DNA of 53,703 bases, taken from the IMG/VR virus record IMGVR_UViG_2526164595_000015, positions 1 to 53,703 of that record. One strand, written 5' to 3'. Position 1 is the stretch's first letter; each line of letters opens with the position of its first letter. Origin of the DNA: a virus. Lineage: Duplodnaviria; Heunggongvirae; Uroviricota; Caudoviricetes. Shown here piece after piece: positions 3,017 to 48,764 of this stretch. The notes under the pieces are model-generated. The model did no database searches and was not told where the DNA came from. It was given only the letters and a program-made list of their open reading frames with translations. The translations under genes and the position numbers were made by a program.

Positions 3017-3598
3017 TTACCCTATAGGTGCTACTGGCCATTCAATATCCGGTGCAGTTGTTGTATTAACACGGTTCAGCAACACCCGATACTTCTTCCA
3101 TGCTTCCAGCAACGAGTTTTCTTCCTCCGTTGCGATCTCCAGATCTACAGCATCCTGAAGTGGCGCTATATGCTCACTGGCTACCTGCATCAGGCTGTTT
3201 TTTGTTTCTTCCGCCTCCCGGATCCGGAACAGTTTTTCTGCTTCCGTATCCTTCACCCAGGCTGTGCCGTTCCACTTCTGAAACTCCCCTTCCGGGGATA
3301 ACCAGGTAACATTTTCCGGTAACGGACCGAGTTCAGAAATAAATAACGCGTCCCCTGACGCTACGTCATAAACCGTTTTACCCCGATGGTCTTCAACGAG
3401 ATGCCACGATGCCTCATCACTGTTGAAAACAGCCACAAAGCCAGCCGGAATATCTGGCGGTGCAATATAGGTACTGTTTGCTGGCAGACCTGTATGAGGC
3501 GGAATATATGCGTCACCTTCACCAATAAATTCATTAGTTCCGGTCAGCAGATTATAAATTTTTATGGTCCGAGGTTGTTCACTCATTCTGAATGCCAT
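3017..3598 (-). CDS. tfa: tail fibre assembly protein
   Basis: 193 aa; C-terminus [13 protein letters not shown]...PDIEWP typical of lambda/Rac/Qin Tfa; start overlaps stf stop (TAATG). Confidence 0.9.
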
Positions 3599-40295: not shown

Positions 40296-40828
40296 TTTTC
40301 CTCACATATGTCATATAGTAAAGGATTATATATACCGTTGTTTTGGAGGCTCAAACAGCGAATCAGATCAAATAAAACGCACATTTGTTAACATTTACAC
40401 AAAGTCTGCGTGGGATATTCTGAAAGAATATCCATAATGTGGAGAGAATCTATTGAAGTGCATGGTGCCGGGTGCCTCCCGGTGAATTCAGTACCAGCAC
40501 CTGAATCCGCGATTATCCCATATACCTACTCGCTGATTGCCCCTCCGCACAGGGGGATTCACCATGCCAGTTTCTTTTAACAAACTCCCCGCAAACCAGA
40601 GAACAGTCAACCGCCTGAATTGTGAAGTATTTAAAAATCTCTCCCGCTAACTGATACCCGGCTAACAGTCTGGCGTTTTCTTTTTCAGCAACGGGAAAGC
40701 AACAACCACCACACCCGCCACCAGCACACCGTCAGCCAGCACTGACATTATCCGGCTGCTGCAATGCCATTCACAAAAACAGTAAGCAATCACTTTTTAC
40801 CGTAACAGGTGATAATCCAGATATGTAT

Positions 40829-41291: not shown

Positions 41292-41368
41292 TGGCGCGCT
41301 GTACTGGATTCGAATCAGTGACCGATTGCTTAGAAGGCAATTGCTCTGTCCGGCTGAGCTAACAACGC
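41292..41368 (-). tRNA. tRNA-Arg (anticodon UCU)
   Basis: 77-nt cloverleaf on minus strand: GCGTTGT acceptor, anticodon loop CTTCTAA, T-arm GGTTCGAATCC-like, discriminator G, CCA. Confidence 0.85.
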
Positions 41369-41381
41369 TGAATACCGATAA

Positions 41382-41461
41382 TGGACCGCCATCGGGGACC
41401 CGCCCCCGCACCAACAACCCTGTTATCGTGTCGTCTGCTCTTCCTGATAAGCTAATGGCGG
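41382..41461 (-). tRNA. degenerate tRNA-like element (pseudo-tRNA)
   Basis: 7-bp acceptor stem (CCGCCAT/ATGGCGG) + CCA and a T-arm-like stem, but no pairable anticodon stem and non-canonical T-loop. Confidence 0.3.
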
Positions 41462-41468
41462 TTTGTGA

Positions 41469-41544
41469 TGGTGGCCCTTGCTGGATTTGAACCAGCGACC
41501 TGGCGATTATGAGTCGCTCGCTCTCACCACTGAGCTAAAGGGCC
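41469..41544 (-). tRNA. tRNA-Ile2 / Met-like (anticodon CAU)
   Basis: 76-nt cloverleaf: GGCCCTTTAGCTCAGTGG… anticodon loop CTCATAA, T-loop GGTTCAAATCC, CCA; closely resembles E. coli ileX/ileY from memory. Confidence 0.85.
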
Positions 41545-44755: not shown

Positions 44756-44911
44756 TTACTCCTCAGGTTCGTAAGCTGTGAAGACAGCGACCTCCGTCTG
44801 GCCGGTTCGGATTCGTACCTCGCAGAGGTCTTTCCTCGTTACCAGTGCCGTCACTATGACGGTTAAACAGATGACGATCAGGGCGATTAACATCGCCTTT
44901 TGCTGCTTCAT
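44756..44911 (-). CDS. hokD: Hok-family type I toxin
   Basis: 51 aa MKQQKAMLIALIVICLTVIVTALVTRKDLCEVRIRTGQTEVAVFTAYEPEE matches recalled HokD/RelF; leader region 44912..45120 contains a 9-bp-stem hairpin. Confidence 0.85.
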   Translation of the reverse strand: MKQQKAMLIALIVICLTVIVTALVTRKDLCEVRIRTGQTEVAVFTAYEPEE

Positions 44912-45460
44912 AGCCTGCTTCTCCTTGCCTTTCGGCACGTAAGAGGCTAACCTACATGTGTCTAGCATGAAATTGGCCTCAGATTAATGTTAAGCGTCTC
45001 GCAGGACGCGTAATGTTAACTGGGGCTTTTCTCTATCTGCCGTTGGTGTTCATGCCCGAGGCAGATAGCCTCAAGCACCCGCAGCCATTCTACTTAACTA
45101 CCGTTACCTCGCCAATGTGAAATCAGTCAGAAAGGCGATCCATAAGAACAATAGCAAGACAATAAATCGCCATTACAGCCGTAATAGCCAGCGCACATTT
45201 GAGAACCAGCACCACAACCTCCTGTATTGGACGTACACCAGTCCTGATGAATATGAGGCTGTCTCGTCAGTGATTCAATACAACTATTGGGTATAGTTTC
45301 TCTGATTTTTTCTGTGGAAATGGGGCTCAACCACTAGTCATTTAATACGCAAAGTCCGATACAAGCTAACCTTCTAGTCCGCTTTGAGCGAAAAGCGGAC
45401 GTTGGAAGTTTAAAACTCGCGAACTACTCAGCGTCCATTGATGCGTATTGTGTAACGTGA

Positions 45461-46105
45461 TTAACCACAGATGATATTGAAACGTTCTCCGGAAATCTTG
45501 ACCATAATGTCAGACAGTTTGCTGACGGCATGGGCTTCAGATGATCCCAGAGCGTCAGGCTGAACAGCTATTACCGAAGCTCCACTTGCCAGCCCTGCTT
45601 TTATACCCGCAGATGCATCCTCAAATACCACGCATTCACCAGGCTCAAGGCCCAAAGCCAAAGCTGCTTTGATGTAACCCTCGGGACTTGGTTTTCCCGT
45701 CATTACATCTTCTGCACACACCATTACTATGGGTAAGGGGAGATTAGCCGCTTTCATCCTGTTTTCGGCAAGCATTCTGCCTGCAGAAGTGACAAGTGCC
45801 CAGCTATCCGGTGGCAGTTTTGATAAGAGTGCAGCGGCCCCTTTTACTTCAGTAACGCCTTCTGTCATGTTGATTTCAACCTCTTCGAGTGAGGCCGCGA
45901 TTTTATTGGTTTTCTCACCTGCACCAATAAAATGCGTCAGTGTATCAATCGTTTGCCGCCCGTGTGCGTAAGCAATCACAGCCTGAGTATCAAGACCGTA
46001 TTCTGCACAAAAATCTCTCCAGACGCTTTCCACTACGGCTGTTGAATCAACCAGCGTACCGTCCATATCGAATAAAAAACCCTTAGCGTTGAATATCATT
46101 GCCAT
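45461..46105 (-). CDS. HAD-superfamily sugar-phosphatase-like hydrolase
   Basis: 214 aa; HAD motif I FLFDMDGTLVDS, later motifs (TSAG, GKPSPEGY, FEDASAGI); resembles E. coli HxpA/YfbT-type phosphatases from memory. Confidence 0.8.
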   Translation of the reverse strand: MAMIFNAKGFLFDMDGTLVDSTAVVESVWRDFCAEYGLDTQAVIAYAHGRQTIDTLTHFIGAGEKTNKIAASLEEVEINMTEGVTEVKGAAALLSKLPPDSWALVTSAGRMLAENRMKAANLPLPIVMVCAEDVMTGKPSPEGYIKAALALGLEPGECVVFEDASAGIKAGLASGASVIAVQPDALGSSEAHAVSKLSDIMVKISGERFNIICG

Positions 46106-46128
46106 TCCTTAATGGTTGCAGAAGAAAG

Positions 46129-46767
46129 TTAATCAAACCATGTTTTTTCATCACCTTTCGCTACTCTCAGGCTGACAGCAATCTGCTCAGGCACAATTCT
46201 TGAAAGCGACAATTCAGGCAGGTCGTTGACATCAAAAAAATCAGCATCGAGTGACTCATGGCTGATTGACAGGCTGCCACCTACTTCTTCACAGAGAAAA
46301 ATCAGCTTGTAAACATGCCAGGGTAAAGGCGGATGGCCGTGAAGATTACGATCCCAAACTCCCAATAGTTTAGTCACTCTGACTTTTAATCCGGTTTCTT
46401 CTTCGACTTCTCGACGCACAGCTTCAGAAGGTGTATCTCCAACATCTGCCCATCCGCCAGGAAGACTCCATAATCCATCTGCAGCCTCTTTCACCATCAG
46501 AATACGATTATTACGCAGGATAAACGCACGCACATCTGTTTTGGGCGTCGCGTAACCCGTTTCCGATACATGAAACAAATCATTGCGGCTAATATCAAAC
46601 TGCGAACTCAGCAGTCCAGCGGCAATTTCACGCAAGGCTTCATAGCGTTCCTTGTCAAAGACGTCTTTTGAATAGGTCAGGCCTGACTGCGCGAGGGCCT
46701 TTAGTCTCTGGGCAACAAAAATAAGCTTTTCTTGGGTCAACACTTCAGACATGTTTTTCATCTTCAT
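46129..46767 (-). CDS. NUDIX hydrolase with N-terminal accessory domain
   Basis: 212 aa; Nudix box GGWADVGDTPSEAVRREVEEETGL. Confidence 0.8.
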   Translation of the reverse strand: MKMKNMSEVLTQEKLIFVAQRLKALAQSGLTYSKDVFDKERYEALREIAAGLLSSQFDISRNDLFHVSETGYATPKTDVRAFILRNNRILMVKEAADGLWSLPGGWADVGDTPSEAVRREVEEETGLKVRVTKLLGVWDRNLHGHPPLPWHVYKLIFLCEEVGGSLSISHESLDADFFDVNDLPELSLSRIVPEQIAVSLRVAKGDEKTWFD

Positions 46768-46963
46768 TTATGTATTCAGAGTTCCTGTTAAGGATACTGC
46801 TCAATTCAATGAAGAATAACAAATGCATCTGGCACCTGCTATGTCCGCTTCTGGCACAAAGCGGACAACCACGCCAGATCTACCCTGTGCCATGAAAAAT
46901 GAGAATGTCAATTCACTCCTGAACTAATGCTTTTTAATCTAGTAACGTCTAAAATACCTAACA

Positions 46964-47401
46964 TTATCCCTGATAAAATGCCAGTATGCGCTGCATAACT
47001 TCACTCATCCGGCACTCGCGACAGATTATGTTTAGGCGACTGTCGTAGCGACGTATTTCTCCATCAGGTAACGACCAGATAAGGTCCGGATCAACCACAG
47101 CTGTTTTCTTCACCTTTGCCCTCGAGAGTTTTTTGCGGGCGTTTTGCCAGTCCTTACGCGCCTGTTCAGACGGGAATAACCCGTAGCCGGAGTTGTATAC
47201 ATCGCCACTGGCTACCAGCTCTCTGGCAAGAACGCTCATCAGATATCTAGTCGCACCTGTTTTAGCTTCCAGTTGCCGTAACGTCTCACGACCGCTCTGG
47301 CGCACGAGTTCCACCACCTGCCCTTTAATTTTTCCCGCTCTTCTTGTGTAAAAACTTTTGCCACAAGTCCCCCTTAAAATTACCTCATGACCTGAAATCA
47401 A
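46964..47401 (-). CDS. hypothetical protein downstream of replication initiator (P/helicase-loader position)
   Basis: 145-aa ORF; no family recognised. Confidence 0.4.
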   Translation of the reverse strand: MISGHEVILRGTCGKSFYTRRAGKIKGQVVELVRQSGRETLRQLEAKTGATRYLMSVLARELVASGDVYNSGYGLFPSEQARKDWQNARKKLSRAKVKKTAVVDPDLIWSLPDGEIRRYDSRLNIICRECRMSEVMQRILAFYQG

Positions 47402-47404
47402 AAC

Positions 47405-48373
47405 TTATCCTCTGAAACCAGGCGGAATTTCTGTATCCGGTTCAGAAATATGATTAACACAACGCTGTACAGGTGAACGCCCTAGGCGGATGACCAGTTC
47501 GTCCCATTTTTCGCGGAGCTTTGACGGGCTCATGATGTTTTTTACCCAGAATGGATCCCGCTGTACCCGACCAAACATTTCACAAATTTGTCTGTGGCTT
47601 CTGCCATCCAGCATCCGCATTGTGCGCACATCATTGGCCCAGACAGTCCAGTTAGGCTCTTTTGGTCGCATGATCTCGCCATCATCACTGGCGGCCTGTT
47701 CGTAGAGACCCACGATCCGCCCCCATATCCACTGCGCACACGCCAGATCCTCCTGGCTACCCCACTGGCGTTTTTTCGCACTAAACACAACTGCGCCAGG
47801 GTGCCGGATTAAAAAATCCTGTTCAGCCGTCTGCGGGTCCGGTTGCGAAGCTTCCGGACGAAAAGTGTTTTTATTCTCTGTAGTAATCTCTGTTGTATTC
47901 TCTGTAGGATCATCGGGCCATTTTGACCCGATGACATTGGGTCGTTTTGAACCAATGGAGCGTTTCATTTTGACCTCTTCCATCGTGTCATTTTGACCTG
48001 ATGGAGCGGCGCATTTTGAACCGATGGATTCGCTCAATTTGCCATCATCTAAAAGCTCGCTCCCATAGTTAATCGTGTAGAAATTGGTCATATCGCGCTT
48101 TGATTTATTGAGCTTTTCACAACGCAAAAGCCCCAGCGTTTTCAGACTTGCAAACGCGCGCTTTAACGTTGACTCTGACCAGAATGGGAACTGTTCCAGC
48201 CATTGTTCCGTTGTGTTATAAATCCAGCGAACACCATCACATTCCATACCGGAGTTGGTATCTCTCAACCAGTAGTGCAGTTGTTGCAAAACAATGGCTT
48301 CGTTTAAGCCGATTTTCATTGCCAGCTGCGTGTTTATAACCAGTGGGCGTTCAGCAAAAAGAAGACTCATAAT
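47405..48373 (-). CDS. replication initiator (lambda O-like organisation, iterons inside gene)
   Basis: ~320 aa; N-terminal HTH-like region, central repeated IGSK tracts encoded by the iterons. Confidence 0.65.
   Translation of the reverse strand: MMSLLFAERPLVINTQLAMKIGLNEAIVLQQLHYWLRDTNSGMECDGVRWIYNTTEQWLEQFPFWSESTLKRAFASLKTLGLLRCEKLNKSKRDMTNFYTINYGSELLDDGKLSESIGSKCAAPSGQNDTMEEVKMKRSIGSKRPNVIGSKWPDDPTENTTEITTENKNTFRPEASQPDPQTAEQDFLIRHPGAVVFSAKKRQWGSQEDLACAQWIWGRIVGLYEQAASDDGEIMRPKEPNWTVWANDVRTMRMLDGRSHRQICEMFGRVQRDPFWVKNIMSPSKLREKWDELVIRLGRSPVQRCVNHISEPDTEIPPGFRG
47919..48032. promoter_or_regulatory. putative replication origin: five direct ~22-bp iterons (CATTTTGA[A/C]C-N-GATGGA)
   Basis: Read directly; located inside the initiator ORF as in lambda ori. 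Confidence 0.6.
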
Positions 48374-48764
48374 TCCATCCAGCTTTTTGTTGGTATTGCT
48401 GTCGATACGCAAGTTTGAAAGCAATTGCTTTTTCTATAAGTTCGTCAGTTTCACGATCCACTACGGCAGGATCAGCAAAAAGCAGTCCGGACTCCACCAC
48501 ATCGCCATATTCTTTGTTTAACCCGGCGATCATGTACGTGATGCTTTTTCCGTCACTAATTTCACGATACAACCTGAAATCATTAATCCGGATAGCCTCC
48601 ATAATTGCAGGCACTAGCGCCGTGAACTTTTCACGCTTATCCCTAGTGTCGATAGCCTTCCAGCGTTCGAATATCTTCACTCGATTAACGCCAAGCGCTC
48701 GCTGATCAACCGCGCCACCTTCATCTGTGACACGCTGAACATCGATGTTCGGGCGCTCTTTCAA
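48351..48764 (-). CDS. hypothetical protein (cII position)
   Basis: 137-aa ORF between dicC and initiator gene. Confidence 0.4.
   Translation of the reverse strand: MKERPNIDVQRVTDEGGAVDQRALGVNRVKIFERWKAIDTRDKREKFTALVPAIMEAIRINDFRLYREISDGKSITYMIAGLNKEYGDVVESGLLFADPAVVDRETDELIEKAIAFKLAYRQQYQQKAGWNYESSFC

Follow-up and report, generated by a model that had tools for sequence, protein, structure and literature searches.

Why should a lambdoid prophage of Escherichia coli carry, between its replication genes and a toxin gene, a Nudix hydrolase and a HAD phosphatase? The question is raised by the IMG/VR virus record IMGVR_UViG_2526164595_000015, of which positions 1 to 53,703, the whole stretch of DNA that was analysed, are called the window here. 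Going beyond a preliminary description of the locus, the comparisons reported below show that the gene pair is a discrete mobile cassette, which is bounded by two short palindromes and common to lambdoid and P2-like phages.

Distribution and limits of the cassette

Within the query 45300-46950, the P2-like phages P2_4C9 and 10W are homologous only from position 45376/7 to position 46866 (77-1567 of the query). The similarity starts at a palindrome downstream of the HAD gene (palindrome B), and ends at a palindrome upstream of the Nudix gene (palindrome A). In these phages, gene G (tail-fibre assembly) and gene FI (sheath) flank the cassette, which thus takes the site of fun(Z) in P2 (the Z/fun slot). 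A third context is the chromosome of E. coli NMBU-W12E19 (L229 3501-4982). The copy found there is 99.7% identical and lies outside both phage slots, next to prophage tail-fibre remnants, with ykgJ on one side and on the other a fragment of a LysR gene that follows paoD. A separate viral contig provides the fourth context, and no match was found in plasmids.

The full cassette is present in 19 of 5426 complete E. coli genomes, and its flanks are present in 1291. Two genomes have a partial HAD copy alone, which covers 76% of the query and bears the annotation 'HAD hydrolase-like protein'. In Escherichia phage 11W (L013 1501-2841), the P2 Z/fun slot is occupied by a decayed Nudix-HAD copy, about 91% identical in fragments, which points to loss of function in one lineage. 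The annotation of this copy reads merely 'similar to hypothetical protein'. In being a discrete insert between conserved backbone genes that is replaceable by other cargo, the cassette is like a phage moron. A moron, as an independent transcription unit, would also have a promoter and a terminator of its own; consensus scans, which are weak evidence, predicted no sigma-70-like promoter inside the cassette, and its palindromes have no T-tracts.

Both palindromes are perfect copies of the 24-bp pattern GTCCGCTT-N8-AAGCGGAC. The 53.7-kb window holds these two matches and no other, against 0.22 expected (up to 3 mismatches). The centres of the palindromes differ, A being of the GTGCCA-type (yGTGCCAr) and B of the CGCTCA-type (TTCGCTCA). 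When the four contexts of the cassette are compared, the cargo-side arm and the 8-nt centre are constant in each palindrome, and the outer arm depends on the context. Exchange therefore took place within the palindromes, the inner arm moving with the cargo and the outer arm remaining with the host site. Other cargoes of the lambdoid slot are likewise bounded by palindromes, degenerate copies are kept at the slot edges in P2 and in K-12 Qin, and exact palindrome arms occur in more than 119 viral contigs.

The layout resembles heterospecific recombination sites around an exchangeable cassette. Cargo between two short recombination sites is also found in Acinetobacter pdif modules, in integron cassettes and in engineered lox/FRT cassette exchange. 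The combination of identical inverted 8-bp arms with differing 8-nt centres is as in heterospecific lox/FRT sites, whereas the palindromes are unlike dif and attC. A site-specific recombinase, an HUH transposase or short-homology recombination may be responsible for the exchange. The palindromes were also considered as canonical intrinsic terminators, which was rejected because neither has a T-tract. Their arms are conserved in sequence, with few compensated variants in a covariation check on a sample that was itself chosen by arm sequence, a result that speaks neither for nor against a maintained RNA structure. Of the features of this locus, palindrome-bounded exchange is the more unusual, and the older P2 literature may already describe part of it.

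The Nudix and HAD proteins

The Nudix protein, whose homologues begin at the third ATG (207 aa), matches the Pfam families Nudix_N (E 7.6e-18, 64.4 bits) and NUDIX (E 7.9e-19, 68.4 bits, cut-off 21.1). It has the defining feature of the superfamily, the box GX5EX7REUXEEXGU on a Nudix fold. The box, GGWADVGDTPSEAVRREVEEETGL, spans aa 104-127 and contains R119, E120, E123 and E124; position 7 is D instead of E, which the subfamily signature permits. In the PDB, nearly full-length matches were obtained with B. cereus CDP-Chase (3Q1P, E 7e-50, residues 19-204), an S. suis protein (3O8S, E 4e-42) and S. pneumoniae UDP-X diphosphatase (4HFQ, E 2e-37). In classical ADP-ribose pyrophosphatases, the Nudix box is followed at a distance of about 16 residues by a proline. 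The cassette protein does not conform to this signature, as its prolines are at +19/+20, although the argument is weak.

The subfamily of CDP-Chase and UDP-X diphosphatase has been defined by a length of 200-210 aa, the N-terminal motif G-U-x-ar-x2-D-x-ar-D-x-[ED]-R-ar, the hinge ETGYxTPK, the motif LPxLS and a variant Nudix box (PMC3655063). All four motifs are present in the cassette protein (GLTYSKDVFDKERY at aa 29-42, ETGYATPK at 69-76, LPELS at 183-187, and the variant box), which we predict to be a member of this subfamily. Its homology to CDP-Chase (3Q1P/3Q4I) and UDP-X diphosphatase (4HFQ) is full-length, and the proteins have in common a size of about 205-212 aa, the Nudix_N helical domain followed by the Nudix fold, and all subfamily motifs. 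Unlike these two enzymes, the cassette protein occurs in E. coli phages and is paired with a HAD phosphatase. The subfamily consists of asymmetric-dimer Nudix enzymes, and its two characterised members cleave pyrimidine NDP-alcohols or NDP-sugars (NDP, nucleoside diphosphate), namely CDP-choline or UDP-sugar/UDP-MurNAc compounds; characterised members are also 3'-5' RNA exonucleases in vitro (PMC3655063).

The HAD gene starts 23-29 nt after the Nudix stop codon. The RefSeq start is the second ATG (46099), which yields a protein of 212 aa and is preceded by an AAGGA Shine-Dalgarno sequence. The protein is matched by Pfam HAD_2 (E 2.2e-22, 80.5 bits) and by TIGR01509 (58.9 bits, over the cut-off of 29.4). 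Class IA of the HAD phosphatases is characterised by the motifs DxDx(T/V) (I), S/T (II), K (III) and (D/E)D (IV) together with a helical C1 cap, and the cassette protein has the motifs of this class. Motif I, FLFDMDGTLVDS, spans aa 10-21 and holds D13/D15; LVTSAG, GKPSPEGY and FEDASAG are the remaining motifs, and all of motifs I-IV are intact. The best NCBIfam match is the equivalog model NF008610 for the YfbT/HxpA sugar phosphatase (E 1e-55), and the best PDB match is the yeast glycerol-3-phosphatase Gpp1 (2QLT, E 2e-22). Orthology to YfbT was rejected, since the score of 188.3 bits is below the curated cut-off of 282; the protein is therefore a related paralogue. Altogether, it is nearest to the sugar/polyol phosphatases of class IA. 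It has the fold class and all four HAD motifs in common with YfbT/HxpA and Gpp1, but differs from them in that its gene follows a Nudix gene and belongs to a mobile cassette.

Origin and selection

Genes of the Nudix family are found as stand-alone chromosomal genes in Cedecea, Leclercia, Pseudescherichia, Kluyvera, Sodalis and other Enterobacterales (57-72% identity), with neighbours that are conserved within genera. The subfamily was stated in 2013 to be limited to Gram-positive bacteria (PMC3655063); in view of its frequency on Enterobacterales chromosomes, this statement is no longer valid. The closest relatives of the HAD protein (60-68% identity) are also encoded by stand-alone chromosomal genes. 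The pairing of the two is young and narrow, and is seen only in close relatives. Apart from the E. coli phages, in which both proteins are about 100% identical, the pair was found in a chromosome-like contig with a GGACT gene upstream (Nudix 88%, HAD 82%) and in an integrase-adjacent island (Nudix 80%, HAD 71%). A further contig has the Nudix gene (83%) alone between two palindromes, with the HAD gene absent. The dN/dS ratios of 0.09-0.11 for Nudix and 0.11-0.19 for HAD show that both genes are under purifying selection.

Other cargo of the two slots

The cassette takes the exact variable positions that are otherwise occupied by fun(Z) and the PD systems in the P2 Z/fun slot, and by relBE-ydfV-flxA in K-12 Qin. 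Its gene content is unrelated to theirs, and is without a toxin or a known exclusion function. Alternatives in the lambdoid slot are HEPN, FRG, RelA/SpoT, DUF4209, QueH (with or without a methyltransferase), alpha/beta hydrolase, KilA-N, DUF7167 and hypothetical proteins. The P2 Z/fun locus has been described by Vassallo et al. as a second defence-enriched hotspot of P2 (PMC9519451).

Cargo of both a defence-like and a metabolic kind is found between palindrome pairs. Defence-like examples are an NsnA/PD-T4-2-like DUF262 protein with its partner, a trio of SIR2, adenosine deaminase and Ham1, and a protein that has a PIN-like N-terminus, as judged by eye, and no PADLOC match. Metabolic examples are LysR+SDR, NmrA+HxlR, GNAT and VOC, and on the Pseudescherichia vulneris chromosome a cupin gene is bounded by the palindromes. 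The G+C content of the Nudix-HAD cassette is 0.47, near the host value, as opposed to 0.33-0.37 for the defence-like cargo between the same palindromes.

A three-gene cassette with a G+C content of 0.37 was observed between A and B palindromes in the IMG/VR contig UViG_2531839583_000011 (L137 1793-5282). It encodes an adenosine-deaminase-like protein, a Ham1/ITPase-like protein and a SIR2 protein (ThsA-like, PADLOC E 9e-32), and is a candidate nucleotide-targeting defence system.

The prophage and its other features

E. coli O111:H21 strain 15A has a lambdoid prophage inserted in ydfJ, which is the Qin site, and with this prophage the window is colinear and 99.97% identical. Read along the minus strand, a cro-like gene is followed by a YdaT-like pseudogene, the O-like replication gene, the DUF977/Ren-like gene, the Nudix and HAD genes, hokD/sok, rem, DUF968, RusA and Q, in this order (coordinates in Table 1). 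The preliminary description had reported two adjacent enzymes with a Nudix box and a HAD motif between the replication genes and hokD, in the early (nin-equivalent) region, and the gene order agrees with this; both minus-strand open reading frames and their motifs are intact. It had also placed relBE-ydfV-flxA at this position in K-12, and the order in Qin is indeed hokD-relE-relB-ydfV-flxA. The DUF977/Ren-like gene is retained beside many differing cargoes.

Table 1. Features of the Nudix-HAD locus and further palindrome pairs (window coordinates, unless preceded by the name of another locus)
Feature	Position	Strand	Remarks
Complete mobile cassette (HAD and Nudix genes between palindromes B and A)	45377-46866	.	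99.3% identity to P2-like phages over this segment alone
Palindrome A, GTCCGCTTCTGGCACAAAGCGGAC, 8-bp arms + 8-nt centre, upstream of Nudix gene	46843-46866	.	exact pattern match
Nudix hydrolase, 212 aa	46129-46767	-	Pfam Nudix_N + NUDIX; predicted CDP-Chase/UDP-X diphosphatase subfamily
HAD-IA phosphatase, 214 aa	45461-46105	-	Pfam HAD_2 and Hydrolase; YfbT-like
Palindrome B, GTCCGCTTTGAGCGAAAAGCGGAC, downstream of HAD gene	45377-45400	.	exact pattern match
O-like replication gene	47405-48424	minus	
DUF977/Ren-like backbone gene, constant upstream edge of cargo slot	46964-47401	-	Pfam DUF977; phrog_142 Ren-like exclusion protein
hokD toxin gene + sok antisense RNA, constant downstream edge of cargo slot	44756-45080	-	Pfam HOK_GEF; Rfam sok 44906-45080; RefSeq hokD
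Further palindrome pairs	L001 6002-6025/7468-7491; L003; L004; L007 4229/5086; L026 1685/2354; L227 4982/5973		

Several other features of the window were observed. The large terminase gene of the prophage is interrupted by an element of about 9.7 kb with an integrase (about 24672-34404). According to the annotation, which was transferred from the RefSeq record NZ_CP077477.1, this element encodes a tyrosine integrase, a helix-turn-helix regulator, BRO-N, an Icd-like protein, a RepA-type helicase, SSB and a ClpP-protease/major-capsid fusion. Such a gene set is like that of a satellite of the phage-inducible chromosomal island (PICI) type; inserted in its host prophage, this putative satellite would leave the prophage defective. 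The YdaT-family gene beside the cro-like gene (48351-48764) has an internal stop in the matching RefSeq record, and a copy of IS2 is located between ydfB and dicB (about 50540-51770). Two tRNAs, annotated as Ile and Arg, are present upstream of the Q antiterminator gene. The Rfam scan of the window gave matches at the gathering score at 44906-45080, 52069-52120, 40406-40596, 41295-41544 and 3057-3255, to sok, the DicF small RNA, STnc100, two tRNAs and IS009. None of the families overlaps the Nudix-HAD cassette, the nearest being sok in the flanking backbone.

Possible functions of the pair

We know of no physiological role for Nudix enzymes of the CDP-Chase/UDP-X subfamily. For the pair, we favour the view of an accessory two-step disposal cassette for nucleoside diphosphates linked to a moiety X (NDP-X), a metabolic or house-cleaning cargo that moves between the cargo slots of temperate phages, and assign this view a probability of about one half. 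The Nudix and HAD genes would be co-transcribed as one unit. The Nudix enzyme would cleave the pyrophosphate bond of an NDP-linked sugar, polyol or alcohol, and the YfbT/Gpp1-like HAD enzyme would strip the phosphate from the product, making the breakdown irreversible. The sequence from NDP-X to nucleoside monophosphate (NMP) and X-phosphate, and on to X and inorganic phosphate (Pi), would be the simplest joint reading of the two proteins. The unit would have been recruited from enterobacterial chromosomes and would be carried passively, and recombination within the palindromes would swap it between the Qin-type lambdoid slot (Ren-like gene/hokD) and the Z/fun slot of P2. In this scheme, the intact genes, their families, the limits of the cassette, its several contexts and the purifying selection are observed. 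The class of substrate, the successive action of the two enzymes, the way in which the cassette is exchanged and the lack of a role dedicated to the phage are what we infer.

The intact catalytic motifs, the family assignment, the known substrates of the characterised relatives, the short distance between the two genes, the Shine-Dalgarno sequence of HAD, the ordinary chromosomal genes among the close relatives, the pair on a chromosome-like contig, the low dN/dS ratios, the metabolic cargo between the same palindromes, the host-like G+C content, the rarity and the occasional decay of the cassette are all consistent with metabolic cargo. There is no sensor, toxin, effector or regulator domain in the cassette. 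In PADLOC-DB 2.0, the single match of the Nudix protein (36.8 bits) was with the Nudix domain found in the candidate system PDC-S07, and the HAD protein gave no match; membership in a known defence system was rejected on account of this generic hit. Full-text literature searches and the supplements of defence-discovery papers did not turn up a publication specific to the Nudix-HAD pair. The preliminary description had considered the pair as a degrader of a nucleotide-based signal or as metabolic cargo. Of the two proposals, the latter is the best-supported reading, and the comparisons speak neither for nor against the former.

Several observations weigh against metabolic cargo. Near-identical copies of the cassette are present in two unrelated phage families, which suggests recent, possibly selected spread. 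Each of the slots is a hotspot of defence genes, either known or likely: at the P2 Z/fun locus, fun(Z) is accompanied by three defence systems that have been validated (PMC9519451), and the lambdoid slot carries relBE, HEPN, FRG and RelA/SpoT proteins. Among 80 species-representative Nudix loci, none has a HAD partner within 4 kb. An old and conserved operon of the two genes can thus be rejected, and the pairing is instead recent, with most of its occurrences on mobile elements. The in-vitro activity of the characterised relatives is weak, with modest catalytic efficiency (PMC3655063). Finally, validated defence systems with HAD phosphatases exist, namely DS-9 (DefensePredictor), which combines a metallophosphatase with HAD, and the HAD + transmembrane (TM) system from the P4 hotspot. 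Like the Nudix-HAD cassette, each of these is an operon of few genes, carried by a mobile element of E. coli, in which a phosphoesterase is combined with a HAD phosphatase. They differ in that the partner of HAD is a metallophosphatase in DS-9 and a Nudix enzyme here, and by PADLOC there is no sequence membership.

A first alternative, which we regard as conceivable but doubtful, is anti-phage exclusion by metabolite depletion. A pair expressed in the lysogen would drain an NDP-linked metabolite that the incoming phage needs, and HAD would block the recycling. UDP-glucose (for the DNA glucosylation of T-even phages), a modified deoxynucleoside triphosphate, or ADP-ribose (for phage NAD-reconstitution pathways) are candidate metabolites, and S. 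pneumoniae UDP-Xase does cleave UDP-glucose (PMC3655063). The idea is attractive in view of two slots rich in defence and toxin-antitoxin genes, of the NsnA/PD-T4-2-like and SIR2-containing systems bounded by the same palindromes, and of DS-9 and HAD+TM as precedents of unexplained hydrolase pairs. However, consensus scans, which are weak evidence, predicted no sigma-70-like promoter within the cassette, and this makes expression in the lysogen doubtful. The missing sensor or regulator, the ordinary chromosomal relatives, the lack of a specific PADLOC match, the rarity and occasional decay of the cassette, and the failure of the literature searches to find a publication on the pair count against exclusion as well. 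It may also be speculated that the two enzymes make up a module of immunity or counter-immunity that has no sensor. Such a module would irreversibly destroy one NDP-linked metabolite (e.g. UDP-glucose for T-even DNA glucosylation, ADP-ribose or ADP-ribose-derived signals) and would be spread among unrelated temperate phages by site-specific exchange at two heterospecific 24-bp palindromes via a putative recombinase; we put this forward only tentatively.

Alternatively, the pair could serve counter-defence or host take-over in lytic growth, which we consider unlikely. The Nudix enzyme would then destroy a pyrophosphate-containing immune signal or by-product (gcADPR, His-ADPR, ADP-ribose), and HAD would remove the phosphorylated product. 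Cyclic oligonucleotide signals are unlikely Nudix substrates because they have no pyrophosphate bond, which speaks against counter-defence; ADP-ribose-derived signals are possible substrates. In both phage families, the cassette is oriented like the phage operons around it, and its expression may therefore depend on read-through in lytic growth, from phage promoters such as the lambdoid pR or that of the late V-G operon in P2-like phages. Together with the lack of a predicted promoter of its own, this fits counter-defence, and on weak evidence read-through would suit a phage benefit better than lysogen defence. Nudix enzymes also recur in viral NAD/ADP-ribose networks (PMC9503650), but the two characterised members of the subfamily favour pyrimidine NDP-X (PMC3655063). 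Moreover, the same Nudix gene is stable on chromosomes, in non-phage contexts, and fun(Z) of P2, from the same slot, is a lysogenic-conversion gene and not an anti-defence gene.

P2 adsorbs to the lipopolysaccharide (LPS) core, and the cassette adjoins tail-fibre genes in P2-like phages, so that lysogenic conversion of the cell surface also has to be considered. Hydrolysis of nucleotide-sugar or CDP-polyol precursors would alter the LPS core, O-antigen or capsule, and with them phage adsorption or host interactions, but in spite of relatives that use cell-wall and teichoic-acid precursors, namely UDP-MurNAc derivatives and CDP-choline (PMC3655063), this is very improbable. The cassette has no glycosyltransferase, flippase or other envelope gene, draining a precursor would be a crude and expensive means of changing the envelope, and no data in favour of the idea turned up.

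Implications

If the Nudix-HAD pair is for house-cleaning only, it would be an ordinary phage-borne accessory gene set. Its presence in two slots with validated defence genes makes it an inexpensive and clearly delimited candidate for roles in phage resistance or anti-defence. The palindromes provide precise and searchable limits of accessory cassettes in lambdoid phages, P2-like phages and enterobacterial chromosomes, and could serve for a systematic harvest of cargo and for the search for the recombination mechanism.

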